DNA of 54,689 nt from Acidobacteriota bacterium (GTDB lineage: Bacteria > Acidobacteriota > UBA6911 > JACQSX01 > JBPCNK01). The stretch covers positions 1-54,689 of the forward strand of contig JBPCNK010000201.1 of assembly GCA_051001345.1 (NCBI GenBank), in the 5' to 3' direction. The translations under genes were made by a program, and so were the position numbers. Below are positions 1-54,689 of this stretch, piece after piece (position 1 is the stretch's first letter; the number at the start of each line of letters is the position of its first letter). The notes below the pieces were generated by a model, which worked only from the letters and a program-made list of their open reading frames with translations, made no database searches and had not been told where the DNA came from.

Positions 1-159
1 CCCCCCCCCCCCCCCGGCACCGTTGATGGCTGCCCCTTTGGCAGGTGCGGGGACTTGGATCGGTTCTGCTCCGGACTTTTCCACACCGCTTGCCATTTGG
101 ACAATTGCGCCAAGGAGTTCTCGGCCAAAAAGTGATGTAATGATGTATAATTGTGCCCT

Positions 160-396
160 ATGCATCGAACTCAAGTCTTGTTAAAGGAGCAACAGTACCA
201 AGCCCTAAAGGCACGCGCCCGGCGCGAAGGGAAAAGCCTTTCGGAGCTTGTCCGCACAGCCGTTGCACAGTGGCTCAGCCCCCGCAGAAATACAACGGGC
301 GCTCGCTTAGCCGACTTGTGTGCGCTCGGGCGGGATCCGCTGGGCCCGGCTGGCCGAGATCACGACGCTGTTCTCTACGACTGGAAACGCAGGTGA
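160..396 (+). CDS. Type II antitoxin, ribbon-helix-helix (VapB/CopG-like)
   Basis: 78-aa ORF. The track ORF starts at TTG 151, but ATG 160 is preferred. RHH-like N-terminus RTQVLLKEQQYQALKARARREGKSLSELVRTAV. Stop TGA 394-396 overlaps the GTG start of the downstream PIN gene (GTGA). Confidence 0.7.
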   Translation: MHRTQVLLKEQQYQALKARARREGKSLSELVRTAVAQWLSPRRNTTGARLADLCALGRDPLGPAGRDHDAVLYDWKRR

Positions 397-791
397 AGCG
401 TGTTTTTGTAGATACTGCCGCATGGTACGCCTTCGTGCGGGCCGACGATCCTGACCACGACGTGGTGAAAAGCGCAATGGAACGATGGGAGACTCGGCTT
501 GTGACGAGTAACTTTGTGTTTGACGAAGTGATTACGCTGGTGCGTGCGCGGCTCGGGCACTCCACGGCCCTGGCAGTTGGAAAAGCGCTGCTTGAACCCG
601 GCGTCGCCGAATTGGTACGGATAGCTGTCGAGGACGAGGAGGAAGCTTGGAAACTTTTCTCCCGTCATAGTGACAAACACTACTCCTTCACGGACTGTAC
701 TTCTTTTGCATTGATGCAAAGGCTTGGGCTTGAAACCGCCATCACGACTGATCGCCATTTCCGGCAAGCAGGATTTGACACCGAGCCCTAG
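393..791 (+). CDS. vapC: PIN-domain ribonuclease toxin VapC
   Basis: In-frame GTG at 393 within track ORF 153..791. PIN pattern: VFVDTAAWYA, FVFDEVITL, YSFTDCTSFALM, AITTDRHF (conserved acidic residues). Translationally coupled to the upstream RHH gene. Confidence 0.8.
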   Translation: MKRVFVDTAAWYAFVRADDPDHDVVKSAMERWETRLVTSNFVFDEVITLVRARLGHSTALAVGKALLEPGVAELVRIAVEDEEEAWKLFSRHSDKHYSFTDCTSFALMQRLGLETAITTDRHFRQAGFDTEP

Positions 792-1067
792 TCCTGCCCT
801 GGCCCGTTTTGAGCGGATTTTTTGAGAATCGCTGAGCGGGTGATATCAACTGGATTTACTTTCGCCAATCGCAACCGGTGGCGCTGGCCCGCTCGCGGTC
901 GCTCGCGGCTCTGTTAATGTTAATTGCGGCCCGATCGCATCCACGGGCTTCAGGTTCCAGGGCCCAGAGACCATGAATTAGAGATTGAATCCAAAACCAC
1001 AATTGTGCAATCCGCAATTGCCTGGAGCCTCGAGCCTGAAGTCTGAAGTCTGATTCATCAGCGTGAT

Positions 1068-1103
1068 TGCATCAAAGCATCAGTATTGGTATGCTTTGAT
1101 GCA
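1068..1103. promoter_or_regulatory. Candidate VapB/VapBC operator: perfect 13-bp inverted repeat TGCATCAAAGCAT-N10-ATGCTTTGATGCA
   Basis: Arms at 1068-1080 and 1091-1103. The right arm ends in the ATG (1103) of vapB-2. Type II TA operons are typically autoregulated at palindromes that overlap the promoter or start. Confidence 0.5.
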
Positions 1104-1351
1104 TGAGAACTACACTGACCTTGGACGACGATGTGGCTGCGCTGTTGAAACGTGCAAGAGAGAAGCGAAATACGAATCTGAGGGAGATTGTAAACGAAGC
1201 TCTGCGCGAGGGCTTGGCGCGCATGACCGCCCCGAACAAACCTTCCCGGCGTTACCGGACGCCAGCGGTTTCGCTCGGTCGGTGTCTGGTGGGCAGCCTC
1301 GATGATGTTGCAGAGGCGCTGGCGGTAGCCGAAGGCGAGGCCTTTCGTTGA
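1103..1351 (+). CDS. vapB: Type II antitoxin VapB
   Basis: 82 aa. N-terminus [38 protein letters not shown] is typical of VapB-type DNA-binding antitoxins. Stop overlaps the start of the PIN gene (TTGA at 1348-1351). Confidence 0.8.
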
Positions 1352-1791
1352 TTCTTGTTGACGCCAACCTGTTGATTTACGCTCACGTCGCCGGTCTGCC
1401 GCAGCACAAAGCTGCGCGTGTGTGGCTCGACGGCCGGCTCAACGGGATAATCCGTGTGGGTCTTCCCTGGCCGTGCCTGCTGGCTTTCGTGCGCCTGGTA
1501 TCCAACCCGCGCGTCTTCGAGCAGCCGGAGTCGATTTCGAGCGCTTGGGGCCAGGTAGAGCAATGGCTCGATCGCGACCCGGTTTGGATTCCTCAGCCAA
1601 CCGAACACCATCGCGAAGTTCTGGGCTCGCTACTTGCCAGAGGCGAACGATCCAATCTAGTCCCCGATGCTCATCTGGCCGCCCTGGCCATCGAACATGG
1701 ACTGAAACTTTGCTCGACGGACGGCGACTTTGCTCGCTTTCCAGGAGTGCAATGGGAAAACCCGCTGCTTGAAATGGGCGGAACCTCGTAG
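1348..1791 (+). CDS. vapC: PIN-domain ribonuclease toxin VapC
   Basis: 147 aa. [36 protein letters not shown]: classic PIN acidic quartet context. TTG start coupled to vapB. Confidence 0.85.
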
Positions 1792-1846
1792 GGTTCTGCA
1801 AAATGCCGGCGAGTCAGACTCGGCGCTGTTGTCGGCGCCACAATTA

Positions 1847-1979: not shown

Positions 1980-2075
1980 TGATGGCCGCCCCGTTGGCAG
2001 GAGGGGACTTGAATCAGTTTTGCTCCGGGTATTCCATACCGCTAGGCATCGAACTCACGTGTTGTTAAGGAGCAA
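1973..2075. repeat. Degenerate direct copy of window positions 16-190 (region upstream of vapB-1 plus the first ~10 codons of vapB-1), with an internal deletion
   Basis: GGCACCGTTGATGGC.GCCCC.TTGGCAGG..GGGGACTTG.ATC.GTT.TGCTCCGG is shared by 16-80 and 1973-2030. GCATCGAACTCA.GT.TTGTTAA(A)GGAGCAA is shared by 161-192 and 2045-2075. Confidence 0.8.
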
Positions 2076-2138
2076 TCCGCAATCCCTGGAGCCTGAAGCC
2101 TGGAGCCTGACCCCTGACGAGGTGCTAGAATTGCCCCC

Positions 2139-4319: not shown

Positions 4320-4336
4320 TGCTTTGCCAGCCGTCG

Positions 4337-4484
4337 GCCGTATGCCGTATGCCGCGAGCCGTATGCCGCTGGTTTCTATCGTGCATTCTGCGTTTTCCAC
4401 GTAGTCTTAGATATGCGCGGATGTCAGGACCTCGAAACTTACAAATAGTCGCGCGGCATACGGCATACGGCATACGGCATACGG
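4337..4484. repeat. Inverted pair of GCCGTAT heptamer arrays (4337-4368 forward, 4454-4484 reverse complement) between kinase and regulator genes
   Basis: GCCGTATGCCGTATGCCGCGAGCCGTATGCCG ... CGGCATACGGCATACGGCATACGGCATACGG. Strict 7-nt period. Confidence 0.95.
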
Positions 4485-4495
4485 AGTGACAGAGC

Positions 4496-5845: not shown

Positions 5846-5860
5846 GGGATGTCCGAGCCA

Positions 5861-5996
5861 GTCCGGGCCACGAGCGTAAGCGAGTGGGCAATCAGTGGCG
5901 GCATTTTGAATTACGAGTTACGAATTACGAGCTACGATAACCTTGCGTTTCGTAATTCGGTAATTTGTAACTCGTAATTATCGTTTGTGATTGCCC
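5861..5996. repeat. Composite palindromic element: conserved module GTCCGGGCCACGAGCGTAAGCGAGTGGGCAATCAGTGGC, then a TTACGAR heptamer hairpin
   Basis: Left arm 5885-5940 and right arm 5948-5996 are imperfect reverse complements. The module recurs at 17856-17894, 37132-37169 and, inverted, at 37270-37315. Confidence 0.9.
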
Positions 5997-6344
5997 GCCG
6001 CGTATTAGTTAAGTTAGAGACACTGTCTTTTTGCGGCTCTTCGTCAATTTGAATGCAGTAGAACAGGGACCGTGATGACGTAACGCAGCCGCCTGCGCGG
6101 GCTCCGCTGCTGGGGGGGCTGTTCGGCGGCCTTCCCAACTGAACAATGACGATCCCACTGGCCACCGGACCACCCGGACATGTCTTCTCTTGGCGTGACA
6201 ACACACAAAGGAGGACAAAGTGGGATCGCTGGACGAGGGACTCGGATTCCGGGACTGGATGTCGACTCTTACAACACCATTAAATGAGTTCGCGGCAGGG
6301 TTTACAGCCATCTAGCTATCGAAGCACGCGATTTCTTGGCGAAC

Positions 6345-6739
6345 TCATGGAGCCACCAAGAACACGTCATAGGCCCAACGGCCCACTGTTGCTCCCTTGT
6401 AATCCGAAATCTTCGCCCGGTATCGAAACTCATTTCCGAATTGGTCTTTCCGCTTGGACTCCTTATAGTCTAGATCCAAGCTCTCGATCTCCGAAGCCGG
6501 CAGACTATATAACTCTGTCGGTTCGGAGATACCGTTGTGGTTAGAGTCCCGCCAAAGGCGCAGTGACCTAAAGATTACATCCGCCCCGCTAATCTTGCCA
6601 TCGTTGTTGCCTCCATTCTCAACCCGGTCAAACTCGCCGAGGGCAAGAAACCCGTTCGGAAGTGCTGCGATCGGCTGCGGCGTAAAGCTTCCGAACAATT
6701 CCACGCCGCTATCGATGGTACCGTTACCATTTCGGTCTA
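6345..6739 (-). pseudogene. 3' fragment of an IS-disrupted secreted Ca-binding-like protein (EF-hand-like DxNxNGxID loops)
   Basis: The reading frame continues upstream of track ORF 6345..6704 as [17 protein letters not shown]. It joins in frame to the 5' fragment once the IS and one TA are removed. Confidence 0.8.
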
Positions 6740-6794
6740 CAGTAACGGCAATAAATAACTTGACATAGATCTGGGGCCCGCATAAGCTTTATGC

Positions 6795-7840
6795 ATGAAA
6801 CCTCTCAAACTGTCTCACCCTTCGCTCACACGCAAGGCTCTGCTGCGGCAGGCCGAAGCAACCCCTGGCGCTTGGGTTGGCGTCCGTATCGCCGGCCTGC
6901 TGCTTATACTTTCGGGTTGGAACTCGACAGCCGTCAGTCGACTGCTGGGCTTGAGTCGTCAGGCGGTGGTGGACTGGATCCGGAAAGCCAATCAACGTGG
7001 AGTCGAGAGTATCTTCGATGTCGCCCGGCCCGGCCGGCCGGCACGGATGGACGCCGGTACGCAACAAAAGCTCAAGGAAGCGTTGGCGAAGTCCCCCGAG
7101 GATTTCGGGTTGAAACGGACACGTTGGGATGGCCTTGTGGTCGTGGAGTTTCTCGACAAGGTATGCGACGTCCAATTAAAGCCACGACAGGCGCGCAACT
7201 GGCTGAAGAACTTGGGATTCGTGCTCAAGCAGCCTGTGTACCGATATATTCAAGCCACCGGCAAAGGCGTCAGGAAATTTCGCCGCGGGCTCAAAAAAAA
7301 CTCCACCGAATCTTAGAGCAGAAAGAGTTAGCCCTGCTGATCTTCGCCGACGAGGCCGGCTTTTCTCTACACCCTCGATTGGGTCGCGTCTGGGCTCTAC
7401 GCGGTTCCAAGCCTCAGGTACCAACCACCAGTCACCATCAGAAGCGCTTGAACCTCTTCGGCTGGGTGGAGCCTTTGTACGGCTGGCACGGTTTGTTTCG
7501 TTGGCCCAAGGGTAACCGCGCAGGATTCCTGGCCTTTCTGAAGTACCTCTGTCACAAGGTTCGTGGCTGGAACAAAATCTACCTCTACGTGGACAAGGCG
7601 TCTTTCCACCGAGGCTCGGAAGTGGACGACTTCCTGACAGCCCACCCTGAAATCGAACTTGAGTATCTACCACCGTATCACCCGGAACTGAATCCTCAAG
7701 AACGTGTCTGGCGGATGATCCGCTACGAAGTCACCACCAACCAGTACTTTGAGACTATTGATCTGATCGAGCAGGCTATCCGAAAGCGACAGCGTCAATG
7801 GCGTTCTCGGAAGATTCGTCCTTTATGTCAAGTTATTTAA
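6795..7840 (+). CDS. IS630-family DDE transposase, two frames joined by a -1 shift on an A8 run
   Basis: ORF 6795..7316 is the HTH part. The -1 frame continues to 7840 with DEAGF, YVDKASFH and LNPQERVW (a D-D-E signature). The frames overlap at A8 7293-7300. Confidence 0.8.
7293..7300 (+). promoter_or_regulatory. Candidate -1 frameshift site, or a frameshift mutation: AAAAAAAA
   Basis: This is the only homopolymer in the frame-overlap window. The fused product would read ...FRRGLKKKLHRILEQKE... Confidence 0.5.
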
Positions 7841-7851
7841 TGCCGTTACTG

Positions 7852-8499
7852 TAACACGAGCCATGCGTCATCCGAATCTTCGGCGGTCCATGGAATCTTC
7901 GTGCTTAAGCCATCCCCATCCAAGTCAAACGACACTCCTCCCGCTCTGCCGGTGAGACGAAAACCATCTCCTTTAACATCCACGATAATGGGAGATTGGC
8001 AGTCTTGGGCATCTTCGATTCCGTTGCAGTTTCGATCCTGGCCGTAACCTGGGCATTGGATAGAGCCTCCAGGGTAGATCGTCGGATCGGAATCATCACA
8101 GTCGTCACCGCCATCAAATATCGCATAGTACCCGTCGCTATCGCTATCCACTCTCTGACAACTGACCACATCGAACCTCGTGACCCTAGTTTTGAAAATA
8201 GGTGGACTGACACAATTGTCCGTCCAACCGGTCGAATACTCGTTTTGGCCAACTGTGCATATGCAATTGTCGTGACAATCCAAATCATTATTACACCCAG
8301 TCGCGCCTGACACTCTCAGACCATTGCAGGGCAAATATGCATACACTATGCGGCATCCGTTATATGGAGCATTTTCAGTACGAATGTATTCAACTTCACG
8401 AACCTGAACGGTCGTTGTCTGGGCCAACGTTATTGGCTCGACGAACGCCACTATAAGTGCTGCCAAAAGCACTGACCTAATAGGCTGGCTGATCGTCAT
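7852..8499 (-). pseudogene. 5' fragment of the IS-disrupted secreted Cys-rich protein (signal peptide, DCDD..P.IYPG metal-binding-like motif)
   Basis: Signal peptide-like N-terminus MTISQPIRSVLLAALIVAFVEPITLAQ. Many Cys residues. DGGDDCDDSDPTIYPGG...CNGIED. The ORF terminates 2 codons into the IS end. Confidence 0.8.
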
Positions 8500-8524
8500 C
8501 GTCGGTTTCCACTTACGCCTCGAG

Positions 8525-9148
8525 CTAATGGTGTCGTGCGGCCTCCAAAATCTTTGTCACCTCAGCTGTTTCTCCGTTGAAATATTTCTTGGAAACGTAG
8601 CCCAACGCCCTCTGAGCCCCCCTCCGCTCAGCCTTTATTATTTCATTGATCTTCCGAGCGTTGGGACCAGACCAACTCCCATCAGAAAACTCGACATAAT
8701 CTACGATGAGTTGGATACCACTTGGCTCCGTACCAAATTGGATCTGATCATCGAACTCGGCGGATACAATTCGTAGCGGCTCGGTTCCATTAGTTGTACC
8801 CGGAAGCAGTCGTGAGTCGAACCATTCAGTCTGGGAGAATTGGATGCTTTCACCCACGACCACATTGTAGATGAAGACGCCAGCAGTAATTTGCTTTTCT
8901 GTCTGGTTCTGGAAAAAAAAATTGGCCCTTTCAATGGTCCGCTCAAGTTTAGATACGTCTGTTCTTACCAAACGCAAATCAGTGGCACCAAGTTGCCGGA
9001 TTGAAATTGGTCGTGGACCATTTGTGAGGAACCGCTCAGGAGGGTCTAGGCTCTTCTGGCCCTCGCTGTGTCGTTGTGCCGGAGATACCACTTGAAAGGA
9101 ATTCAGAAGTGCAGCTGTGATTGATAGGATCAAAAATATTCTTGTCAT
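8525..9148 (-). CDS. Hypothetical secreted protein
   Basis: An internal ATG at 9148 gives MTRIFLILSITAALLNSFQVVSPA, a signal-like N-terminus. I recognise no family. Lies in the lower-GC region. Confidence 0.5.
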   Translation of the reverse strand: MTRIFLILSITAALLNSFQVVSPAQRHSEGQKSLDPPERFLTNGPRPISIRQLGATDLRLVRTDVSKLERTIERANFFFQNQTEKQITAGVFIYNVVVGESIQFSQTEWFDSRLLPGTTNGTEPLRIVSAEFDDQIQFGTEPSGIQLIVDYVEFSDGSWSGPNARKINEIIKAERRGAQRALGYVSKKYFNGETAEVTKILEAARHH

Positions 9149-9583
9149 GTTATTGCGCGGCAATCGACGCGAGCGCCGCTCCTCCTGTGACAAAATGCGG
9201 CTTGTACCAAGAACATCATAGCCAAAAAGCACCGTACTTTCAAGGTATCTATTACCACTGTTGTCGAAAATTAGCTGAGAATCGGTTCAGAATTCGGGCT
9301 CTTCGCCGATTTGTATGCGCAGCTCTAATGTGGCGCAATCGATTGGAATCACGGCTTTTCTTGCCTCGACCGAAGGTCTCTGATGACGACGAGCGCCGCG
9401 GCCTGGACCCCGCAACGGTCGAGCGCGTGAAACACCCGTTCTCGGCCAAGTGATCCAAACATCGACGGGACAACCATCAACGTATCCAATGCATTAGGGG
9501 CGTCATCGCGATCGGCGCAGACCTGCATACAAAATCGGCGAAGACCCCTTTTTGCTTTTTCATCTTGTGAATAATCCGGCCTG

Positions 9584-10543
9584 CTATGTCACTTCGCCGC
9601 CAAACTCCGCCCCGATTCCTTGGGCGCGGGCTTTTTCGTAGACGAAAATTCCGACGGCAAGATCTTCGAGCGCCAACCCCAACGATTTGAAAACTGTAAT
9701 CTGCCGCGCGTCGACGCGGCCGCGAGAGGGATCGGCAACGATCTCGGCCAGCTCACGCATGCGGTCCAGATGCAGAAGGCCGCGCTCGATCCCTTCCAGA
9801 AAATCCCCGGCTTCCAGCGCGGCCTGCCGCCGGCTGTCGACAACCACCAGGTCGGCGCGTGTCAGCAGGGCGGTAGGAAGTTCGCGGCGCGTCAGTGCGT
9901 TGGATCCTGTGGCGTTGATGTGACAGCCTGCCGCGACCCATTCCTCGCGCAGGACTGGCTCGGCGGCAAACGTGGCCGTGCAGATGACCTCGGCGCCTTC
10001 GACCGCCTCGCGTGCAGAAGCGGCCGAACGCAGCGGCGCGCCGGCAACCGACATTGCTTCGATAAACGACGCAACATTGTCGGGCTGGCGGCTCCAGACG
10101 CGGACCTCGGAAAAATCGCGCACCGAGGCAATCGCTTCCAACTGGCTGCGCGCCTGCCAGCCCGAGCCGATGATGGCGGCGGTTCGGGCGCCGGCCCGGG
10201 CCAGCAGCCGCGTGGCCAGGCCGCTGGCCGCCCCCGTGCGAATCTGCCCGAGCTGGTCGGCCTCCATCATCGCTAGGAGCTGACCGCTGGCGGCGTCAAA
10301 GAGGTGGAAGAAAAATCGCGCTTTGCCGGCTGCCGTCGTATAGGCCTTGTAGCCGAAATACCCTGCGGCCGGCAGCGCGGCGGAAAGCCAGTGCAGAGTC
10401 CCTCCGGGATAGCGCAAGCGCCTGCGCGGCTCGTTGATGGCGCGTCCGGCGTGCCAGGATCTAAAGGCTTTCTCCAGCAGACCGATCGCCTCGCGCACGG
10501 TGACGAGGGAAGCGACTTGCTCTTCGTTCAGGTACAGAAACAT
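9584..10543 (-). CDS. Ornithine cyclodeaminase / mu-crystallin family protein
   Basis: MFLYLNEEQVASL..., GQIRTGAASGLATRLLAR, AAIIGSGWQARSQLEA (Rossmann fold). ATG 10543 is preferred over GTG 10561. Confidence 0.8.
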   Translation of the reverse strand: MFLYLNEEQVASLVTVREAIGLLEKAFRSWHAGRAINEPRRRLRYPGGTLHWLSAALPAAGYFGYKAYTTAAGKARFFFHLFDAASGQLLAMMEADQLGQIRTGAASGLATRLLARAGARTAAIIGSGWQARSQLEAIASVRDFSEVRVWSRQPDNVASFIEAMSVAGAPLRSAASAREAVEGAEVICTATFAAEPVLREEWVAAGCHINATGSNALTRRELPTALLTRADLVVVDSRRQAALEAGDFLEGIERGLLHLDRMRELAEIVADPSRGRVDARQITVFKSLGLALEDLAVGIFVYEKARAQGIGAEFGGEVT

Positions 10544-10594
10544 GGTTCGGTAGCGTAACACGTTCGGTTAGCGATCGCTGTTCGTGGGACTAGT

Positions 10595-10636
10595 GGACTG
10601 TAACATCTGAATTGATACCAACAGCATTGATCCTAG
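10595..10636. repeat. 42-bp unit GGACTGTAACATCTGAATTGATACCAACAGCATTGATCCTAG, identical to 22462-22503
   Basis: Exact 42/42 match between the two loci. Both copies end in CTAG. Confidence 0.95.
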
Positions 10637-10638
10637 TG

Positions 10639-10779
10639 ACGCTTTGCGGTGCAATGAAAAGCGGCTTCACCACAGAGACCGCGCGGCGTAGCCGCAACCA
10701 AAGTCGGCAGCCGGCAGTAGGCAGCGCCGGCCTGCGGCATACGGCATACGGCATACGGTTGGCGCCAATCCGCAATTGT
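10639..10779. repeat. Mosaic repeat: module ACGCTTTGCGGTGCAATGAAAAGCGGCTTCACCACAGAGAC...GCCGCAACC, an ATACGGC array and AATCCGC units
   Basis: The module recurs at 50122-50185 (about 80% identity). CGGCATA x3 at 10733-10757. CAATCCGCAATTG at 10767-10779. Confidence 0.85.
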
Positions 10780-10807
10780 AATTGACATGGGCCTGCTCTT
10801 AGAAATA

Positions 10808-10829
10808 GGTTAGTAAGTCTTTACTAACC
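10808..10829. promoter_or_regulatory. Candidate TetR operator: GGTTAGTAA-GTCT-TTACTAACC
   Basis: Perfect 9-bp arms, 20 bp upstream of the tetR GTG. A TTGACA at 10782-10787 lies 18 nt upstream of TAGGTT, which overlaps the left arm. Confidence 0.55.
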
Positions 10830-10848
10830 ACTTTGAAGAGGACAAGAC

Positions 10849-11472
10849 GTGGTTCGCAAAAGTGCGCCGGCTCGAAGCCGGATGGCCGGCCGGGATCGCA
10901 GGCTGCAGATCATAGAAGTTGCCTCCAAGCTGTATTCGGCCCACGGGTTCCGCGTAACGACCAAGCAGATCGCAGCCGCGGCAGGCGTCAGCGAAGCCGG
11001 CCTTTACAAATACTTTGCCTCGAAGAAGGAACTCTTTGCCGCCATCATCGACAGCCAGATCGCGCAGCCCATGGCCATGCCGGTCAAAGCCGCCGACAGG
11101 TCGGACGATTACGAAGTCTTCTACACGATCGCGCACGGCATCCTGAGGAAACTTGAGATTCAACCGACGTTTTTGCGGACGCTGTATTTCAGCGCGCTCG
11201 AGTCGCAAGAGCTTTCCGACATGGTGTTTGTCTCTTACGCGGAACCGCTCCACCAGTTCCTGGGAGGCTATATCGCGCGTCGCATCAAGGAAGGCGCTTT
11301 CAAAAAAGTCGAACCCGAAATGGCGGTGCGCGCATTTCTTGGAATGGTGATCAACCACATCATTTCGGTCGAGTTTTTCCAGAAAGAGCCGGTCGGTCCC
11401 AAGCGTCTCGATAAAGCCGCCGAGTACTTCGTTCGGTTGTTTCTCGACGGCGCACAGCACAGCAAAGGCTGA
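10849..11472 (+). CDS. TetR/AcrR family transcriptional regulator
   Basis: HTH region RLQIIEVASKLYSAHGFRVTTKQIAAAAGVSEAGLYKYFASKKELF. Heads the efflux operon. Confidence 0.9.
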   Translation: MVRKSAPARSRMAGRDRRLQIIEVASKLYSAHGFRVTTKQIAAAAGVSEAGLYKYFASKKELFAAIIDSQIAQPMAMPVKAADRSDDYEVFYTIAHGILRKLEIQPTFLRTLYFSALESQELSDMVFVSYAEPLHQFLGGYIARRIKEGAFKKVEPEMAVRAFLGMVINHIISVEFFQKEPVGPKRLDKAAEYFVRLFLDGAQHSKG

Positions 11473-11474
11473 AC

Positions 11475-14630: not shown

Positions 14631-14685
14631 TCGCGCTTGGGGACGCCTCGAGTTATGAAGAATCTGGTTTTGTAAAGGGTAGAGT

Positions 14686-17808
<3,123 letters not shown>

Positions 17809-37876: not shown

Positions 37877-37936
37877 GTTAACTCGGCACGTGACGGTCTT
37901 TTTTTAGGTTTTTAGAGCCTTTAGGAGCAATTATTT

Positions 37937-38539: not shown

Positions 38540-38601
38540 TCCTGCAAACCCGAGCCGCGACTGAATCCGTTTTCAGCGCTTGTAATCCTGGAGGCTGAAG
38601 T

Positions 38602-39507: not shown

Positions 39508-39535
39508 GAACGGCCGGCAGGCCGGAGGTGAATGA

Positions 39536-40471: not shown

Positions 40472-40473
40472 AG

Positions 40474-40574
40474 CAGGCTTCAGGCTCCAGGCTCCAGGCT
40501 CCAGGGATGCGATTATGGATTGTATCCGCAATCCGCAATTCCCTGAAGCCTGAAGCCTGAAGCCTGAAGCCTGG
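40474..40574. repeat. Palindromic AGGCTYC / GAAGCCT element between the cytochrome b and cytochrome c genes
   Basis: CAGGCTTCAGGCTCCAGGCTCCAGGCTCCAGGG (40474-40506) versus CCCTGAAGCCTGAAGCCTGAAGCCTGAAGCCTGG (40541-40574). AATCCGC units lie in the loop. Confidence 0.95.
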
Positions 40575-40584
40575 AGGATAATGA

Positions 40585-43500: not shown

Positions 43501-43695
43501 ACGCGCTGGATCGCCGAACCGGCCATCATCGCGCCGGGCACGGCCATGCCGTCGGGTCTGTTCCGGCGCGAGGGCGGGCGCTGGGTTTTCGCCAGCACAT
43601 TGCCGGCCAGCTTTGCCAATTACAAAGGCGATCATCTCGATCTGCTGGTCCGCTACCTCTATCAGGCGCCGATCTCCGAGATCGGAAGGAAGTAG
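40585..43695 (+). CDS. Membrane-anchored octahaem c-type cytochrome
   Basis: 1036 aa. One N-terminal TM helix and a coiled-coil region. Eight CxxCH motifs: CESCH, CSPCH, CQQCH, CWGCH, CLGCH, CAGCH, CMGCH, CLKCH. An extra CPVC pair. Confidence 0.85.
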   Translation: MSDPSSLEKTSGDPNKPAVQPPPPPPEDTRDPIADYSMSWPIAIFSFLLMLTLVWAFYQEAWGERPWIRYQERFKQVYTEYLRKIQPEQVKAEREIRNSAEFKELEARVLTAEKAVAAEVAKIDETLNKEVNPRLAKLNDVFAVARSEVAALTYKVEASGGDGRDDLEELRQEKHDVELPGSNGETQEVEMTYNDLEHEFNGQKKRQGELISRRAELERGPAALRRERDEYLKSHLGGPNEQDVNGLINKMDEYKVQIRQIHVAGVELVDRCESCHAGIREPVTLTSDLMGNEKVFTSHPNRELLTIHDPERFGCSPCHNGNGTATVSAKMAHGRYKHWLWPMYDRANVEAGCQQCHEADIVLDHSTVLNTGKELFLQRGCWGCHAREGFDPEPGKLMNVQKSIEQLRKRKEDTRLEATRVERQGDKAPDNATAKRLYARAESMRMSLARMDNQLEQMATQARDLLQDVKKTGPNLKEMSQKLRKEWVPVWLENPNAWRPGTKMPTFRLQKDEIQAISAFLWQSALTEPKLAVHPPGNADHGKELFETRGCLGCHSIGEGSNRIGGVFAANLTRVGEKANYDYLVRWIHNPRERTAPYCPVDKRDITPQDYEAKGLPFAFDRDHSVCPVCGNQLQVQQMTVMPNFRLTPAETRDIASYLMTRRKNGSYPAAGFMDDPKLKDRGRFLVRHYGCAGCHEIAGLENEAKIGTELTKEGSKPIERLDFGLLTEKAKHEKWYDHKGFFERKLRKPEVYDEGKIKPHLEKLKMPNFNLSEQEITALSTFLLGSVDSALPKTYFYTPPDERKHSQDGWWVVQKYNCMGCHQLRPGQVADLKALVPRYKDPDWKDRVPPPLVGEGARVSPDFLLAFLRNPALSSTDLHRNGVRSYLEVRMPTFEFSAGELQKLVRFFGALAYQQSPHIPAKLAPLTTEEMSLARQMFTHPAAPCLKCHTGATATAPDLAMVRERLQPGWTTRWIAEPAIIAPGTAMPSGLFRREGGRWVFASTLPASFANYKGDHLDLLVRYLYQAPISEIGRK

Positions 43696-43798
43696 GGGTC
43701 AGGGCTCAGGCTTCAGGGGTCAGGGGCACGACGTGATCGCGCTCGTTGACGTTGATCGTGCACGTTGACGTGATCGTGCTCGTTGATGTGCTCGTGGC
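43696..43798. repeat. Inverted copy of the 17998-18113 composite (GGGGTCA/GGCTTCA heptamers plus a 6-nt-period GTGATC/GTGCTC/GTTGAC tract)
   Basis: The reverse complement aligns with 17998-18113 through ...CACGATCACGTCAACGTGCAC...CTGACCCCTGAAGCCTGA.CCC. Confidence 0.9.
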
Positions 43799-43813: not shown

Positions 43814-44791
43814 ATGCTGAAAGGTCAAATCCGCCGTCTGGTTTTTCTCGCAAGGCGACTCAAGCTGTGGATCAGCGGCCGCGGGTCCCTTTCAGCATCG
43901 GGTGATTTCTGGGCTCTGCAGCTCAAGGGCAACAACGATTTTGTCTATTGGCTGGCCCTTCCCACTGTTGTCCAGTGGGTCAACCTGCGCCTGACCGGTT
44001 CTGCGCAGATCTGGCCGCTCTCCTGGTTCCTGTTTTCGATTCAAGACAAGCTTCCCGTCGAGCGGGCCGTGTCGATCGGGTGTGGAGTCGGCAACCTCGA
44101 GCGCGAAACCGCCCGGCACCAGGGCGCGCGTCATATCGATGGCATTGATGTAAGTAAGCCTGCACTGCTGCACGCCCGGCAAGCAGCCCTGCAGGCGGGC
44201 TACTCCGACACCATCTCGTATCATCTCGAAGACGCAGCCGCCTGGCTGCGAAACGCCGTGAAGAGCCCCGGATATGATCTGATCTTCTTTCACTGCAGTC
44301 TCCACCATATCGAGCGCCTCGAGGAAGTTTTGTCGCTTTGTGCCCGCTGTCTGCGCGGCGGCGCTCCCGGCCTGCTGTATGTGGACGAATACATCGGACC
44401 CTCCCGGCGCGAGTGGCAGGCCGACCACCTCGGGCATGCCAACGCGATCTTCGGAAGGATTCCTCCACAGTACAAAAGAGCGTCGAAGGTTTTTCCTCCC
44501 GTGGCGTTGGATGATCCCACTGAGATGATTCGTTCCTCGGAAATCGAGGGCGTGCTCCGCAACCACTTTGAAGTGATCCACTACAAACCTTATTACGGCA
44601 ACGTGGTGATGCCGCTCGTTTCCGCAATCAAAGGGACGGGACTGCAGGATCCAGCTGTGCTGAAGATTTTGAGCGAAGCAATGGACTTGGAGGATTACCT
44701 GATTGATCGCGGTCTGCTGGATCCACTCTACGCCGTCTTCGTGTGTCGTCCCCTGTCAGGGTCGCAAACGATGGTCAACGTCGACGCGTAG
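43814..44791 (+). CDS. Class I SAM-dependent methyltransferase
   Basis: Motif I VSIGCGVGNLE. Motif post-I DGIDVS. DLIFFHCSLHH. Confidence 0.7.
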   Translation: MLKGQIRRLVFLARRLKLWISGRGSLSASGDFWALQLKGNNDFVYWLALPTVVQWVNLRLTGSAQIWPLSWFLFSIQDKLPVERAVSIGCGVGNLERETARHQGARHIDGIDVSKPALLHARQAALQAGYSDTISYHLEDAAAWLRNAVKSPGYDLIFFHCSLHHIERLEEVLSLCARCLRGGAPGLLYVDEYIGPSRREWQADHLGHANAIFGRIPPQYKRASKVFPPVALDDPTEMIRSSEIEGVLRNHFEVIHYKPYYGNVVMPLVSAIKGTGLQDPAVLKILSEAMDLEDYLIDRGLLDPLYAVFVCRPLSGSQTMVNVDA

Positions 44792-44929
44792 GGAAGCAGT
44801 GTGTCCTTCTTTGGATCTCCGTATTGAACTCGGCCGTGGCGCCATCCCTCTTGCAGTTTCCGACGGGCGAATCAATCCCGGGGATTTGGGATCGGAGCCC
44901 TTTGGCCATTTGCGGTAGACTGTTTCGCG

Positions 44930-45238
44930 GTGGCCGAGCCGATACAGATTGCATGTAACCTGAACTCCGAGGAGTTCGCAAGGCGGCGAAAGGAAGTCCT
45001 CGAACCGCTTTGGCGCGCCGTTCGGCAAACAGTTGAAATCGACGACGGCATAGCCCTTCTCTTTGACAGCGACGAGGGACGCCTTCCGTTCTTAGCAAAA
45101 ATGGTGGAGCTTGAGAGGCAATGCTGTCCCTTTCTCCGTTTTGTCATAACTGCGGAGCCGGCAAACGGCGTGATCCGTCTGGACATTTCAGGACCTCCCG
45201 GAACGCGCCAGACTATCAAAATGGAGTTAGGGCTATGA
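44930..45238 (+). CDS. Hypothetical protein
   Basis: 102-aa ORF with GTG start. Contains a CCPFL motif. I recognise no family. Confidence 0.4.
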   Translation: MAEPIQIACNLNSEEFARRRKEVLEPLWRAVRQTVEIDDGIALLFDSDEGRLPFLAKMVELERQCCPFLRFVITAEPANGVIRLDISGPPGTRQTIKMELGL

Positions 45239-45351
45239 GCTGGTCCGAAAGTGCCTTCCTGGGAGCGCGGGCGTCCCGCTCGCACAACCTGGCACTGCGT
45301 TAGATGCGCGCGGGACAAGCGCGCCCCCGGGCTGCTCAACGGAAATCCACC

Positions 45352-45717
45352 ATGGAACGACAGCCGATCAACCTGGCCGACAAGTTTTCCAAGTTCTCGG
45401 AACACTGGGCGCCCAAAATCATCGCTCGAATGAATGACTATCACTTCACGCTCGTCAAGTTTCAAGGCGAGTTTGTCTGGCACAACCACTCCCATACCGA
45501 CGAAGTGTTCGTCGTTGTCGACGGGTCAATGACAATTCATTTTCGAGACGGGGACGTTCAGGTAGGCGCCGGGGAATTGTTCGTGATCCCAAGGGGTGAG
45601 GAGTACAAAACTTCGGCCCAGGCCGAGTGCAGGGCCATGGTTGTCGAAACTGCTGGCACAATCAACACGGGCGATGTCGTCAGCGAGAAAACTTCCGCGG
45701 ATGACGTCTGGATCTAG
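45352..45717 (+). CDS. Cupin domain protein
   Basis: GEFVWHNHSHTDEVFVVVDG...G.LFVIPRGEEYK, the two cupin motifs. ATG 45352 preferred. Confidence 0.75.
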   Translation: MERQPINLADKFSKFSEHWAPKIIARMNDYHFTLVKFQGEFVWHNHSHTDEVFVVVDGSMTIHFRDGDVQVGAGELFVIPRGEEYKTSAQAECRAMVVETAGTINTGDVVSEKTSADDVWI

Positions 45718-45733
45718 CTCGGAAGGAGAGCCA

Positions 45734-46588
45734 ATGGCAATAGCGAAGGGTACTCGACGAGCCCGCACATGGGGCGCAGTTGTAATCGCGCTTGTGCTGA
45801 CCACAGCGCTAGCGTTCGGCCAAACGACGCCGGCTGCTGCCGGCAAGGTCGTCGCCGTCAACGGTATCGAGATGTACTACGAAAGCACCGGGCAGGGAGA
45901 GCCGCTGGTTCTGCTCCACGGTTTCAACGCGTCTGGCGAGGCGTGGGCCGGCGTGGTTGGAGAATTCGCGAAACACTATCGGGTGGTAGTGCCCGATCTC
46001 CGAGGACACGGGCGCTCGACCAACCCTGCAAACCGATTCACCCACAGGCAGTCGGCCCTGGATGTTTTCGCCCTCCTTGACGAGCTCGGGATTAAGCAGT
46101 TCAAAGGGATGGGTATCAGCACCGGCGGGATGACGCTGATTCATATGGCAACGCAACAGGCCTCCCGAGTCGAAGCCATGGTCCTGATTGGCGCGACGAT
46201 TTACTTCCCCGAGCAGGCGCGAGAAATCATGAGGAAAGCGACAGTGGAGAGCTTGACGCCCGCTGCCTACGAGCGCAGGCGCCGAACCCACAAGCGCGGG
46301 GACGAGCAAATCAGGGCGCTTCAACAGCAGTTTCACGAATTCAAGGACAGCTACGACGACATGAACTTCACAGGTCCGTATCTTTCGACTATTACCGCAC
46401 GCACCTTGATCGTACACGGCGATCGCGATCAGTTCTTTCCCGTGGCGATTCCCGTGGAGATGTACCGTTCCATTCCGAACTCCTTGCTCTGGATCATTCC
46501 ACGCGGCGGCCACGTTCCCATCTTTGACCCGTTAGTGCCGTTTACAGCGACGAGTCTGAAATTCTTGAAAGGTTGGGACAACCAATAA
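45734..46588 (+). CDS. Alpha/beta hydrolase (secreted)
   Basis: GGAAGGAGAG RBS precedes ATG 45734. Signal-like N-terminus. LLHGF, nucleophile elbow GISTGG, C-terminal GGH. Confidence 0.8.
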   Translation: MAIAKGTRRARTWGAVVIALVLTTALAFGQTTPAAAGKVVAVNGIEMYYESTGQGEPLVLLHGFNASGEAWAGVVGEFAKHYRVVVPDLRGHGRSTNPANRFTHRQSALDVFALLDELGIKQFKGMGISTGGMTLIHMATQQASRVEAMVLIGATIYFPEQAREIMRKATVESLTPAAYERRRRTHKRGDEQIRALQQQFHEFKDSYDDMNFTGPYLSTITARTLIVHGDRDQFFPVAIPVEMYRSIPNSLLWIIPRGGHVPIFDPLVPFTATSLKFLKGWDNQ

Positions 46589-50121: not shown

Positions 50122-50304
50122 AACGCTCTGCGGTGCAGTGAAAAACTGCTTCACGACAGAGACACAGCGCAGCAAGGCCGCAACCGTATGCCGTATGCCG
50201 CAGGCCGGCGACGGAGCACCAACAGAGCCGCGACCGTGAGGGAGCGGGCCGGCAGATGGACGGCGTAATCGAGAATCGTCGCGAAATGTGAAGGTTTCAC
50301 TCAT
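50122..50304. repeat. Left long inverted-repeat block flanking the HEAT gene: TCTGCGGTGCAG module, GCCGTAT array, conserved core, CGAGAATCGTCGCGAAATGTGAAGGTTTCACTCAT
   Basis: 50181-50255 matches the reverse complement of 51478-51552 at 74/75. 50270-50304 matches the reverse complement of 51386-51420 (about 32/35). Confidence 0.95.
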
Positions 50305-50310: not shown

Positions 50311-50416
50311 TACAGAGGACACAGAGAAAACACAGAGAAAAACTTCGGACCAAAGAACCGACTGACCGTAATCCCGCATTTCTCTGTGTTCCTCTGTGTC
50401 CTCTGTGTCTCTGTGG
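50311..50416. repeat. CACAGAG-rich hairpin
   Basis: TACAGAGGACACAGAGAAAACACAGAGAAAAAC versus TTTCTCTGTGTTCCTCTGTGTCCTCTGTGTCTCTGTGG. Confidence 0.85.
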
Positions 50417-50471
50417 TGAAGACGGTCAAAAATCGGCCCCAGTTTTCCCGGGCCGCGCAAGCGGCGAAACT

Positions 50472-51323: not shown

Positions 51324-51583
51324 GCCGCAACCGTATGCCGTATGCCGCGGGCCGGCGACGGAGCACCAAAAGAGCCGTAGTATTCATGAGTGAAACCTTC
51401 GCATTTCGCGACGATTTTCGGGACACAGGAGAACACAGAGAGAAGCGGCTTACGAGTCCTACGACTACGCCTTCAATCTGCCGGCCCGCTCCCTCACGGT
51501 CGCGGCTCTGTTGGTGCTCCATCGCCGGCCTGCGGCATACGGCATACGGTTGCGCGGCTAAGCCGCGCTGCACCGCAGACTAG
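51324..51583. repeat. Right inverted-repeat block. It is itself a palindrome (arms 51324-51377 / 51503-51556) and ends in CTGCACCGCAGACTAG
   Basis: See the entry for 50122-50304. The outer tip 51566-51583 is the reverse complement of CTAGTCTGCGGTGCAG. Confidence 0.95.
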
Positions 51584-53030: not shown

Positions 53031-53083
53031 AGAGAGTCCTTCAAAAGAAGAGATGATAACGTGATCGGAGGCCAGAGACAAGA

Positions 53084-53109
53084 CACTGGCCACTGCCCAC
53101 TGGCCACTG
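53084..53109. repeat. CCACTGG (reverse complement of CCAGTGG) heptamer array
   Basis: CACTGGCCACTGCCCACTGGCCACTG, between glgC and the CbiX-like gene. Confidence 0.9.
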
Positions 53110-53110
53110 A

Positions 53111-54346
53111 CTAACTGAACCGGATTCCGCTCGGCACTACGACAACCCCCTCATTGACGACAAACCGCTTGGCATCGTCGTCGGCATCGTAGCCGATAAC
53201 GCTGTTGGCGGGAATTTCAACACCTTCATCGATGATCGTGTTGCGGATCCGCGAGTAGCGCCCTATGGAAACGTGGTCCATCAAAATGGAGTCGATCACG
53301 TGCGAGTAACTGTTGACACGCACGTCATAGGAGAGAATGGATCGAATCACGGTGCCGCCGCTGATGATCGACCCCAGTGAGATGACGGAATCATAGCAAG
53401 CGCCTACGCGGCCTTCCTGCGCGCTTTGAAATACCGTCTTTGCTGGAGGGTACTGCCGGGGGCAGGTGCGGATCGGCCAGACGTCGTCGTAGAGGTTGAA
53501 GAGCGGGTTGACCGACACAAGGTCCATGCTGGCTTCAAAATACGATGCTATCGTGCCGATGTCCCTCCAGTACTTGGCTTCCTTCTTGTTCTCGTCTACG
53601 AAACTGTACGCGTGCACCGGTTCGCCGGAGGCGACCAGCGCAGGCAACACATTCTTGCCGAAGTCGTGATCGCTTTTCTGTTTGGCGTCGTCGATGACCG
53701 ATCGTACCAGCGCATCGGTGTTGAAGACATACACGCCCATGTTGACCTGGATGCGCTCACCCAGGCGGGCCAGCACCTCCGGGTCGCGCGGCTTTTCTAA
53801 AAAGCCGCGAACGCGGCCGCTCGGATCGGTCTCGACGACTCCGAAGCGCGAGGCTTCGGAGACGCTGGTCTCAACGGTCGCAATCGTCACGGCGGCCCCA
53901 CGTTCGATGTGCGAATCGATCAGCCCGGCGTAGTCCATCTTGTAGAGGTGATCGCCCGATAGCAACAACACGCGTTCGGGGCGCTCCTGCTGGATGAGGT
54001 AGATGTTTTGAAAGACGGCGTCGGCTGTTCCCACGTACCAGCGAGCCGAGTAGTACTGTTGCGGAGGCACCGTGTAAATGAACTCGCCGAGGTCGTGCCG
54101 AAAGATGTCCCAGCCCCGGCGGATGTGCTGGTCGAGCGTCAATGAGCGGTATTGTGTAAGGACGTAGATCCGGCGCAGTCCGGAATTGAGACAATTGGAG
54201 AGTGTGAAGTCGATGATGCGGTAGGAGCCACCAAAGGAAACGGCCGGCTTGGCTCTGTCTTTGGTGAGCGGGTAGAGACGCTCGCCTTGCCCTCCGGCCA
54301 GGATGAGTGTCAGAGTCTTTCGAAGCGTAGACAGCGCGTCAGGCAT
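53111..54346 (-). CDS. glgC: Glucose-1-phosphate adenylyltransferase
   Basis: LILAGGQGERLYPLTKDRAKPAVSFGGSYRIIDFTLSNCLNSG. C-terminal left-handed beta-helix region. Confidence 0.95.
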   Translation of the reverse strand: MPDALSTLRKTLTLILAGGQGERLYPLTKDRAKPAVSFGGSYRIIDFTLSNCLNSGLRRIYVLTQYRSLTLDQHIRRGWDIFRHDLGEFIYTVPPQQYYSARWYVGTADAVFQNIYLIQQERPERVLLLSGDHLYKMDYAGLIDSHIERGAAVTIATVETSVSEASRFGVVETDPSGRVRGFLEKPRDPEVLARLGERIQVNMGVYVFNTDALVRSVIDDAKQKSDHDFGKNVLPALVASGEPVHAYSFVDENKKEAKYWRDIGTIASYFEASMDLVSVNPLFNLYDDVWPIRTCPRQYPPAKTVFQSAQEGRVGACYDSVISLGSIISGGTVIRSILSYDVRVNSYSHVIDSILMDHVSIGRYSRIRNTIIDEGVEIPANSVIGYDADDDAKRFVVNEGVVVVPSGIRFS

Positions 54347-54348
54347 GG

Positions 54349-54496
54349 TCAGGCTCCAGTGCAGGCTCCATGCTTCAGGCTCCAGGCTTCAGCCTGTGAA
54401 TTAGCAATTGTGACGCCTCTAAAAAGTTGTGCAACGTTCCAATACGGGAACGCTCATGACTGGAGCCTGGAGCCTGGAGCCTGAAGCCTGAAGCCT
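54349..54496. repeat. Palindromic AGGCTCC / GGAGCCT-GAAGCCT element
   Basis: TCAGGCTCCAGTGCAGGCTCCATGCTTCAGGCTCCAGGCTTCAG (54349-54392) versus CTGGAGCCTGGAGCCTGGAGCCTGAAGCCTGAAGCC (54460-54495). Confidence 0.95.
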
Positions 54497-54689
54497 AGCT
54501 CTTCTGAAGCACCTGCTTGACCTTCTCCTTCAACTCGGTCAAATCGGAGGACTTGATCACATAGGCGTCGGCGGCCCAGCTCATGAAGTTTTCCTGGTAG
54601 CTCGCAAAGGCCGTGTTGAGAATGACCGGAATGTTGTTGTGCTTTCCCAGGATCCTTCCGAGAGCCTCCAGGCCGTCCATCCCGGGCAT
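54495..54689 (-). CDS. Response regulator receiver domain, C-terminal part (5' end lies outside the window)
   Basis: MPGMDGLEALGRI...PVI..TA...........A..Y..K pattern. Truncated by the window edge. Confidence 0.7.
   Translation of the reverse strand: MPGMDGLEALGRILGKHNNIPVILNTAFASYQENFMSWAADAYVIKSSDLTELKEKVKQVLQKS

Follow-up and report, generated by a model that had tools for sequence, protein, structure and literature searches.

Dense heptanucleotide long simple sequence repeats, many in inverted pairs, in the non-coding DNA of an Acidobacteriota genome

The 54,689-bp stretch analysed here, called the window below, is contig JBPCNK010000201.1 of a soil-type Acidobacteriota bacterium (assembly GCA_051001345.1), and our subject is the tandem arrays of 7-nt units that occupy its intergenic gaps. 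These ~55 kb are the part of the host genome that entered the analysis. The window has a G+C content of ~59%, is ~18% non-coding, and has an ordinary chromosomal gene content, as judged from Pfam scans of its open reading frames (ORFs): PIN/antitoxin modules, a histidine kinase (HK) with a sigma54 response regulator (RR), a TetR-OEP-MFP-RND efflux operon, TrmFO, a sulfatase, XerC, an insertion sequence (IS) transposase, a Ser/Thr kinase, L21, Obg, NadD, RsfS, RlmH, a Rieske-cytochrome b-cytochrome b(C)-multihaem cytochrome c cluster with CtaA/CtaB, and GlgC. Rfam and tRNA scans of the window returned no matches. The best named relative of its TrmFO is that of Pyrinomonas (65% identity), and the host is an Acidobacteriota, not a cyanobacterium. 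An earlier note, made from the letters of the window, had read the arrays as hairpin-forming mosaic elements akin to cyanobacterial STRRs and proteobacterial REPINs, and could place them in no described family. We find that they are heptanucleotide long simple sequence repeats (LSSRs), of the same kind as the GGGAATC/GGGGAYT arrays of Xanthomonas and Nostoc.

Arrays were detected with Tandem Repeats Finder and with a lag-autocorrelation scan requiring 13-of-14 or 12-of-14 matches per scan window, which together recovered essentially all of the coordinates and units first listed. The 7-nt period is as strict as had been claimed, with 185 scan windows at the 13-of-14 level for lag 7, 144 for lag 14, one for lag 2 and none for all other lags from 3 to 15. 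There are 31-35 strict period-7 arrays, spread over 22 intergenic gaps rather than the more than 25 of the earlier note. At the 12-of-14 criterion array bases total 1007, of which 943 (94%) fall in non-coding DNA; 932 non-coding array bases were observed against a mean of 0.94 in dinucleotide shuffles of the window's non-coding DNA. The remaining 64 coding bases all lie at gene ends, in agreement with the claim that arrays stay out of the interior of coding sequences, and the stops of trmFO, rsfS and other genes do lie within or at arrays. To call the gaps saturated was right as to density, which is 0.57 arrays per kb against 0.03 per kb in 314 kb of unrelated metagenome contigs (about 18 times), with ~70% of the window's gaps carrying arrays; it was too strong as to extent, since arrays make up only 10% (strict) to 23% (loose, with flanks) of the non-coding DNA. 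That decayed arrays form the bulk of the intergenic DNA was rejected, because no 7-nt periodicity is left in the window outside the arrays. The 314-kb background came from a metagenome scan with a mosaic junction, CGCAAT-N1-3-CCTGRAGCCTGRAG, as a marker; its 49 matches were at chance level and without arrays. The window's arrays have the attributes of LSSRs: a head-to-tail unit of 5-11 nt repeated beyond chance length, exclusion from coding DNA, and a copy number that is unstable between close relatives.

The arrays are not an assembly artefact. It is true that the short-read contigs of the host and its relatives break inside arrays, and a Logan contig from run SRR33880242, the product of an independent assembler, has both ends broken within repeats. 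That contig is nonetheless 100% identical to the window over 37288-40503 (3.2 kb), three arrays included. Arrays also lie in frame with gene ends, and other samples and long-contig metagenome-assembled genomes (MAGs) have related arrays at matching sites, including the same gene borders in relatives at 96-98% identity. Absence from independent assemblies had been named as grounds for abandoning the arrays; with these comparisons, an origin in assembly or sequencing is refuted for practical purposes, and we give it next to no credence.

At least eight units, falling into about three super-families, are used side by side in the window. Within arrays, the members of a super-family are joined by single-base steps (GGACGAR-GTACGAR-TTACGAR; CCTGGAG-CCTGAAG-CCTGAAC-CCTGACC; AATCCCC-AATCCGC-AATCGGC), and many arrays alternate two unit variants, which accounts for the period-14 rows of Tandem Repeats Finder. 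As read by eye, a CC (or GG) dinucleotide is common to most units, once in each. A GC-rich core resembling REP elements, CGTRAGSGAGYGGGC, is present in six copies against 0.6 expected, within conserved blocks of ~35-45 nt; it forms inverted pairs of its own (1833-1874/1952-1993 and 37125-37187/37260-37322) and is also fused to heptamer arrays. A degenerate core with one mismatch to the pattern was seen by eye upstream of L21 (~6550-6600) in L094, an array-free relative, where an exact-match scan of the loci had passed over it, so the core seems older than the arrays. Reading the units as three-frame stop cassettes was tried and rejected, as inspection of their stop-codon content showed no consistent pattern. 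Two further kinds of repeat accompany the arrays. One is an 18-nt-period array of CACGAG-like hexamers, at 18001-18083 and, as the reverse complement, at 43730-43796, each fused to a GGGGTCA/CCTGACC array; the resulting composites of ~110 nt lie 25 kb apart in opposite orientations, and an ORF at 17841-18101 that reads through the 18-nt array ends in a His-rich tail, HEHVHERVHEHDHVNENDHVNVHNHV. The other consists of short CACAGAGA-type repeats and their reverse complement (CTCTGTG) at 50319-50341, 50385-50420 and 51423-51444, which are hairpin-prone and lie beside GCCGTAT/core composites.

By inspection, convergent inverted pairs of one unit family occupy 12 of the ~25 loci, and ~13 arrays are solitary. 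The earlier note's statement that at most loci an array faces its own reverse complement is thus right about the pairs and true of about half of the loci. Pairing does exceed chance: among neighbouring arrays of the same unit, an automated count gave inverted to direct as 7:0 in the window, and 15:0 with two related genomes added. The pairs take the forms CAGGCTY..RAGCCTG (four), GCCGTAT..ATACGGC (three), GGACGAR..YTCGTCC (three) and TTACGAR..YTCGTAA (two), and the longest arms in an inverted-repeat search measure 92 nt at 83% complementarity. Paired loci fold better than their shuffles (z -5 to -16, with ten gaps at z <= -5), which upholds the predicted hairpins; the strongest, between MFP and RND, has a z of -15.9, and the cytochrome b(C)/c, sulfatase/xerC, HK/RR and glgC elements folded as DNA give z from -5.4 to -9.5. 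Solitary G-rich and C-rich arrays are unfolded (z +0.1 and +1.1); this class includes GGGGATT, GGGGTYA, AATCCSC, CCAGTGG and some CCTGRAG/CCTGACC arrays. The loops between arms show no kinship in sequence from locus to locus, even within one unit family, and the two arms of a pair are homogenised independently of each other: in the cytochrome b/c hairpin, GGAGCCT predominates on the left and GAAGCCT on the right.

The positions of the arrays (Table 1) follow the genes closely. Arrays extend up to a constraint, whether a stop codon, a start codon with its Shine-Dalgarno sequence or a promoter, and sometimes themselves supply a stop, a Shine-Dalgarno sequence or a C-terminal tail. Three GGACGAR arrays start at a stop codon or no more than a few bases away from one. 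In two cases in the window the next gene takes its GGAG(G) Shine-Dalgarno sequence from the last CCTGGAG unit; in the cytochrome b(C)/c hairpin the last unit, CCTGGAG+G, supplies GGAGG. The last nine residues of TrmFO, GDWGLGIGD (19495-19521), come from a GGGGATT array, and a 96% identical relative ends in ADCGSLLSG, so that array turnover rewrites the tail of the protein. Pfam assignments support the placement of arrays inside operons that had been proposed, at HK/sigma54 RR, MFP/RND, cytochrome b(C)/multihaem cytochrome c, rsfS/rlmH and glgC/next gene. Orientation is biased as well: across the window and two related loci (L153 and L099) the sense-strand G-C skew is +0.14 for arrays after stops against -0.07 for those before starts (Mann-Whitney p=0.0009).

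Table 1. Heptamer arrays, array pairs and REP-like cores in the window
Positions	Strand	Feature	Context and remarks
943-1055	.	Inverted pair; CAGGYTY left arm 943-968, CCTGRAG right arm 1019-1055; AATCCGC module 1007-1020	PIN/antitoxin gap
2071-2118	+	Solitary mosaic of AATCCGC, then CCTGRAG, then CCTGACC	Ends 21 nt upstream of HK start
4329-4486	.	Inverted pair; GCCGTAT (4329-4370), ATACGGC (4452-4486)	Fills HK/sigma54 RR gap; DNA fold -46.3 kcal/mol, z -8.1
5908-5983	.	Inverted pair TTACGAR/YTCGTAA	64 nt past RR stop; adjoins REP-like core 5857-5893
10725-10779	+	Solitary ATACGGC array and AATCCGC unit	Abuts TTGACA -35-like hexamer upstream of tetR; hexamer read by eye, absent from promoter-scan output
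14409-14624	.	Largest hairpin; GGACGAR arms grading to TTACGAR near loop; 92-nt arms, 83% complementary	MFP stop codon towards RND start; RNA fold -140.9 kcal/mol, z -15.9
18001-18113	+	Composite of 18-nt (CACGAG-based) array and CCTGACC/CCTGAAG array	Just upstream of trmFO promoter
19487-19549	+	Solitary GGGGATT x4 (+3 degenerate units)	TrmFO last 9 codons and stop; canonical G-quadruplex motif
21032-21127	.	96-nt palindrome; GCCGTAT arms around REP-like core; perfect terminal inverted repeats	Sulfatase/xerC gap; z -7.8
30478-30512	+	Solitary GGGGTYA array	rsfS stop TAG (30487-30489) within GGGGTTA unit; G-quadruplex motif
31074-31166	+	Solitary AATCCGC array, then AATCCCC x4	Ends 8 nt before comF-like start; unfolded, z +1.1
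32359-32480	.	Inverted pair CAGGCTY/CCTGRAG; AATCGGC-type units ahead of right arm	BsuPI/pilZ gap; promoter-like site directly after, at 32481
32929-32953	+	Short solitary CAGTGGC array	Immediately past pilZ stop
33982-34013	+	Solitary CCAGTGG x4	Between ytxH and thiD (both - strand)
37071-37322	.	Mosaic; CAGGGGT/CAGGATT array 37071-37113, then REP-like core pair 37125-37187/37260-37322 enclosing TTACGAR/YTCGTAA hairpin 37180-37273	Array upstream of nth
37670-37841	.	Inverted pair GGACGAR (37670-37711)/YTTCGTCC-type (37762-37803); CCTGAAG array 37804-37841 directly behind	Upstream of Rieske-cytochrome b operon; present in independent Logan contig
40472-40577	.	Hairpin; CAGGCTC x3-4 left, AATCCGC x2 loop, CCTGAAG x4 right	Fills cytochrome b(C)/cytochrome c gap; z -9.5
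43691-43796	-	Inverted copy of 18001-18113 composite; GGGGTCA array and 18-nt array	GGGGTCA array starts from cytochrome c stop codon
46576-46720	.	Inverted pair GGACRAR/YTYGTCC	Begins at TAA stop of alpha/beta-hydrolase gene
50180-50247	+	Solitary GCCGTAT array and REP-like core composite	100% identical to 21032-21099
51326-51554	.	229-nt palindrome; 52-nt arms (GCCGTAT array and core), 94% complementary	
53082-53111	+	CACTGGC array	Occupies all of the 17-nt gap separating two - strand genes; extends over one start and one stop
54349-54498	.	Inverted pair CAGGCTY/CTGGAGC	glgC and next - strand gene; abuts upstream gene's stop, runs to 2 nt before glgC start; z -5.4
5875-5889, 17870-17884, 37146-37160, 37287-37301(-), 50235-50249, 51484-51498(-)		REP-like core CGTRAGSGAGYGGGC	

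Relatives of the host, referred to by L-numbers that each denote an individual contig or locus, show how quickly the arrays change. The copy-number variation that had been proposed as a check is found, with changes of unit and of copy number at the same sites in relatives at 96-98% identity. In L095 and L096 (two Logan contigs, TrmFO 96%), AATCCCC/AATCCGC units take the place of the window's CCTGACC/CCTGAAG and reach the same boundary before the trmFO promoter, and the 3' end of trmFO carries GCGGATT x2 where the window has GGGGATT x4 and three degenerate units. L152, with an RR 98% identical to that of the window, has entirely different RR flanks, with inverted CACGAG-type arrays reaching up to the start codon (these arrays, at 1-27 and 1535-1562, are inverted around the RR gene). 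The arrays gain or lose 7 or 14 nt at a time, and their turnover outpaces protein divergence of 2-4%.

The distribution of the arrays is patchy, and most relatives are without them. Five related genomes are array-free: no arrays were found in L094 (syntenic, TrmFO 79% identity), L097/L098, L150, L154 or L155, with 8.8 kb covered for L094 and ~21 kb each for Pyrinomonas, L150, L154 and L155. The cytochrome b(C)/c junction measures ~30 nt with a plain Shine-Dalgarno sequence in L150 and L151 and holds a hairpin of 113 nt in the window, so the hairpin is a derived insertion into the operon. At the other extreme is L153 (GCA_030157145.1; RR 66% identity, same gene order), which has 23 arrays in 21 kb and inverted pairs in nearly every gap, built from units unrelated to those of the window (GGTCATC, GCAGAAR x18, TGTCCGT, AGGTCGM, GAATGRC, CCCAGTG). 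Its orthologous HK/RR gap holds an array hairpin of similar size to the window's and of unrelated sequence. L099 has two RGGATGA..TCATCCY pairs that begin at stop codons, and L151 has three solitary AATCCGC arrays. The 18-unit GCAGAAR array of L153 (6547-6676, 130 nt) faces YTTCTGC units between argR and an antitoxin gene, and in L153 the sigma54 RR has its start codon within a GATGACC array. Further afield, exact GCCGTAT x3 arrays occur in Terrabacter, Streptomyces, Chloroflexaceae, WOR-3, Burkholderia, Saprospiraceae, Planctomycetota and other distant lineages; at these loci (L001-L093) there is usually one array per 8 kb, unpaired, and only a few genomes (WOR-3 UBA2202, Chloroflexaceae F17_50 and an Aminicenantes MAG) have several heptamer arrays per locus. 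As GCCGTAT arrays occur in many phyla, usually single and unpaired, they are not a marker of the system in the window.

Heptamer repeats have been known since 1990 in cyanobacteria and since 2007 in many phyla, and the kind of element seen here, including its inverted pairs and its placement rule, is already described. The closest case is that of Rehm et al. 2015, who found 186 and 183 GGGAATC arrays in two Xanthomonas genomes, 89-93% of them intergenic, with 70-75 convergent inverted pairs per genome able to form stem-loops (PMC4692102). Those arrays have 2-26 copies, often overlap stop codons, are unlinked to IS elements and had no function found for them; their length and sequence differ between the two close species, and their G-rich side coincides with the coding strand in the 50 nt that follow stops and with the non-coding strand in the 50 nt that precede starts (PMC4692102). 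Nostoc PCC 7120 carries GGGGAYT arrays (PMC4692102). The window shares with these systems the convergent inverted pairs, the orientation rule and turnover at the level of species, and its GGGGATT x4 array (19490-19519) is the Nostoc unit itself. It differs from them in that they use essentially one unit family, whereas the window splices at least eight units into ordered mosaics; most of its units are incompetent for G-quadruplex (G4) formation, its arms reach 92 nt and its host is an Acidobacteriota. With a Xanthomonas genome of about 5 Mb, 186 arrays correspond to ~0.04 arrays per kb, against ~0.6 per kb in the window. Mrazek, Guo and Shah 2007 described LSSRs as tandem 5-11-nt units longer than chance, with heptamers the commonest class in bacteria, typical of large, GC-rich, free-living genomes with a scattered phylogeny, and proposed polymerase slippage as their origin (via PMC4679880 and PMC4692102); as summarised in those two papers, that account is without inverted pairing, unit mosaics or Acidobacteria.

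The other comparisons are more distant. The STRR heptamers of heterocystous cyanobacteria, reportedly described by Mazel and colleagues in 1990, are said to consist of several units tandemly amplified in non-coding DNA, and in this the window resembles them. The canonical STRR1-3 units are CCCCAGT, TTGGTCA and CAACAGT, and no unit of the window is a rotation or reverse complement of these (CCAGTGG and CCCCTGA come nearest). Hairpin pairing is not a defining feature of STRRs, and the window's host, which has sigma54 activators, is non-cyanobacterial; with a host that is not a cyanobacterium and units that differ, the arrays are not STRRs proper. REP units are imperfect palindromes of 20-40 nt, and REPINs are near-identical copies tied to a RAYT gene. 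The window's elements resemble REPs, bacterial interspersed mosaic elements (BIMEs) and REPINs in being intergenic, in forming hairpins as inverted doublets, in their modular mosaics, in lying within operons and in the GC-rich core of the composites, but their arms are tandem 7-mers, variable in copy number, arm length and loop. The inverted doublet of a REPIN is present, and its near-identical 20-40-nt palindrome is not (one 68-nt block is identical at two loci); no RAYT/IS200-type (Y1) gene was found among the window's ORFs scanned with Pfam. Inverted termini such as those of MITEs (miniature inverted-repeat transposable elements) are also present, yet loops show no kinship from copy to copy, and the three copies of the array and core composite (D8) have no flanking duplications. 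The STRR/REPIN-like reading is therefore not supported, in view of the units, the lack of a RAYT gene among the window's ORFs, the unrelated loops, the independent arms and the lack of target-site duplications, and the claim that no described family fits gives way to one that does, the intergenic heptanucleotide LSSRs of Xanthomonas and Nostoc (PMC4692102). STRRs of Calothrix are cited in that same work (PMC4692102), and MacGregor 2015 described TAACTGA direct repeats in marine Beggiatoaceae, some cyanobacteria and Bacteroidetes, with 2-6 copies, one inverted case among 170 sets and a proposed role in translational regulation (PMC4679880). The TAACTGA repeats are likewise intergenic heptamer arrays that often end a few nucleotides from a start codon, have interspersed variants and are patchy across phyla, but they are of a single unit and almost solely direct, in contrast to the many units and inverted pairs of the window. 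We found nothing in the searchable literature that links Acidobacteria with heptanucleotide repeats. The novelty lies in the phylum, in the density, in the use of many unit families and ordered mosaics within one genome, and in the fusion to a REP-like core, together with arms that reach 92 nt and a turnover recorded at 96-98% identity.

Strong folding (z -5 to -16), stems that link a stop codon with the start or Shine-Dalgarno sequence after it, and the biased orientation of arrays relative to genes would all fit selected cis-acting structures at gene ends, either intercistronic RNA hairpins (terminators, attenuators, RNase III or stability elements, translational-coupling devices) or G-quadruplex/i-motif switches. 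The HK/RR gap, in which the array hairpins of the window and L153 are similar in size despite unrelated sequences, points the same way, although such co-occurrence is expected by chance when most gaps of both genomes carry arrays. The hairpins are, however, not conserved: they are missing from five relatives, replaced in relatives at 96-98% identity, and absent from the ~30-nt operon junction of L150 and L151. Intrinsic (Rho-independent) termination was rejected because the stems are without U-tracts, none being found after array stems in terminator scans of the window. No terminator-like match in the window coincides with an array hairpin; the sole match inside an array (53087-53106, - strand) has a 6-pair stem, and another site, at 34015-34034, adjoins an array without lying within it. 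A.C mismatches outnumber G.U mismatches on the sense strand of the arms (48 vs 26), the opposite of the pattern left by selection for an RNA helix, and about half of the arrays are unfolded. As for G4 structures, three arrays are exact four-tract motifs (19492-19516, 30482-30506 and 31137-31161), but these are 3 of more than 30, the total in the window is not above shuffles (5 vs 1.6, maximum 6), and GCCGTAT, CCTGRAG, GGACGAR, TTACGAR, AATCCGC and CCAGTGG cannot form G4, so that a G-quadruplex explanation was set aside as well. We therefore consider selected cis-acting structure a rather unlikely account of the arrays. A non-autonomous mobile element, REPIN- or MITE-like and moved by a transposase encoded elsewhere, with the arrays as its terminal inverted repeats or binding sites, is also unlikely, if a little less so. 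It would account for the 96-nt element with perfect terminal inverted repeats, for composites that recur in identical or inverted form (the ~110-nt composite at 18001-18113 and 43691-43796 among them) and for arrays at the borders of lineage-specific gene insertions. With ~70% of gaps carrying arrays, though, their presence at such borders is expected by chance. Within a unit family, the loops have neither sequence nor length in common, copy number varies from arm to arm, homogenisation goes on separately in each arm, and the three D8 copies show no evident target-site duplications; the window's ORFs include no Y1/RAYT gene, and its DDE_3 and DUF772/DDE_Tnp_1 transposases have unrelated ends of their own. 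It is quite improbable, finally, that the arrays serve as binding sites of a protein or RNA whose reading of nucleic acid follows a 7-nt register and so sets their period and repertoire. The exclusive period in four genomes, the single CC (or GG) in most units and the recurrence of related units in distant genomes speak for such a factor, but no candidate was found, the window has at least three unrelated super-families and L153 a different set, and GCCGTAT forms arrays in many phyla, usually singly.

We lean, with somewhat better than even confidence, towards slippage-driven, self-propagating palindromic heptamer satellites of non-coding DNA, whose modules are shuffled by recombination and whose structural effects are probably tolerated. 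Arrays would expand by slipped-strand mispairing, and complementary periodic arms, able to pair in shifted registers, would let inverted pairs arise and persist. Ectopic recombination between loci would shuffle modules, giving rise to their ordered mosaics and to the composites with the REP-like core. When single-stranded, the pairs would form highly stable stem-loops in which a stop codon comes to lie beside the start that follows it. Such structures, which may act as RNase III substrates, protect 3' ends or form cruciforms, are probably side effects that are tolerated and not conserved regulators, and selection may mainly prune orientation, leaving the G-rich sense strand after stops and the C-rich one before starts. 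The step from pair to self-propagating palindrome, in which hairpin-templated fill-in or template switching would copy gains from arm to arm, is conjecture, and mirrored unit order, a test of such copying, is only weakly significant, in the three longest pairs. Against this account, simple slippage leaves unexplained both the 7-nt unit as the sole array period in four genomes and the 15:0 excess of inverted over direct neighbours. Polarity is fixed per unit family in 12/12 pairs; a 68-nt composite of array and core is 100% identical at 21032-21099 and 50180-50247, 29 kb apart, with a third copy at 51327; the module order AATCCGC, CCTGRAG, CCTGACC recurs across loci; unit families are common to genomes at 65-77% protein identity (AATCCGC in L151, GGAYGAR in L099); and whole arrays, with the rest of the intergenic content, are replaced between relatives at 98%. 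A mobile element or a sequence-specific trans-acting factor would account for all of these no less well. It is conceivable, though unlikely, that some Acidobacteriota lineages have a dedicated system, missing from their relatives, that writes, inverts and exchanges heptamer arrays in non-coding DNA; candidates would be a nuclease or transposase, a polymerase activity that switches templates, or a protein with a 7-nt register for reading DNA or RNA. If real, it would explain the period, the inversion bias, the fixed polarity, the shared repertoire and the replacement alike, and might underlie the heptamer arrays of Xanthomonas and cyanobacteria too.

The window offers a comparative system for asking why bacterial LSSRs are heptamers, as these Acidobacteriota genomes are a rich natural experiment: many units, most gaps filled, array-rich and array-free relatives that share gene order, and turnover at 96-98% identity. 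Two old questions, whether there is a trans-acting factor and whether pairs come from hairpin-templated copying, thereby become testable by comparative genomics alone. There is a practical side as well, in that short-read assemblies of soil Acidobacteriota break up at the arrays, at almost all gene borders, and genes can gain tails, stops or Shine-Dalgarno sequences from them, which affects both MAG quality and annotation.

Several smaller features of the window deserve mention. Its first 15 positions are a run of 15 C at the contig start, probably an assembly end effect. Three gene insertions are lineage-specific in comparison with syntenic relatives: ~12 kb between RR and trmFO (5846-18156), with a DDE_3 transposase, two hypothetical genes, OCD and the TetR-OEP-MFP-RND genes; a sulfatase between trmFO and xerC (19577-21031); and a methyltransferase, a hypothetical gene and an alpha/beta-hydrolase within the cytochrome bc/CtaA-CtaB cluster (43814-46588). 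Arrays stand at all of their borders, as they do in most other gaps. The DUF772/DDE_Tnp_1 transposase (22648-24066, - strand) belongs to an IS element whose end at 22457-22503 has a 96% identical solo copy of 47 nt at 10590-10636, 12 kb from the element and at the border of the efflux-operon insertion. Ahead of trmFO, a TATAAT box ~7 nt before the ATG (18140-18159) is kept in L094 (1585-1606, 79%) and L095 (60-78, 96%); its conservation at this distance suggests a leaderless transcript, and the heptamer array upstream stops just 5' of the presumed -35 region.

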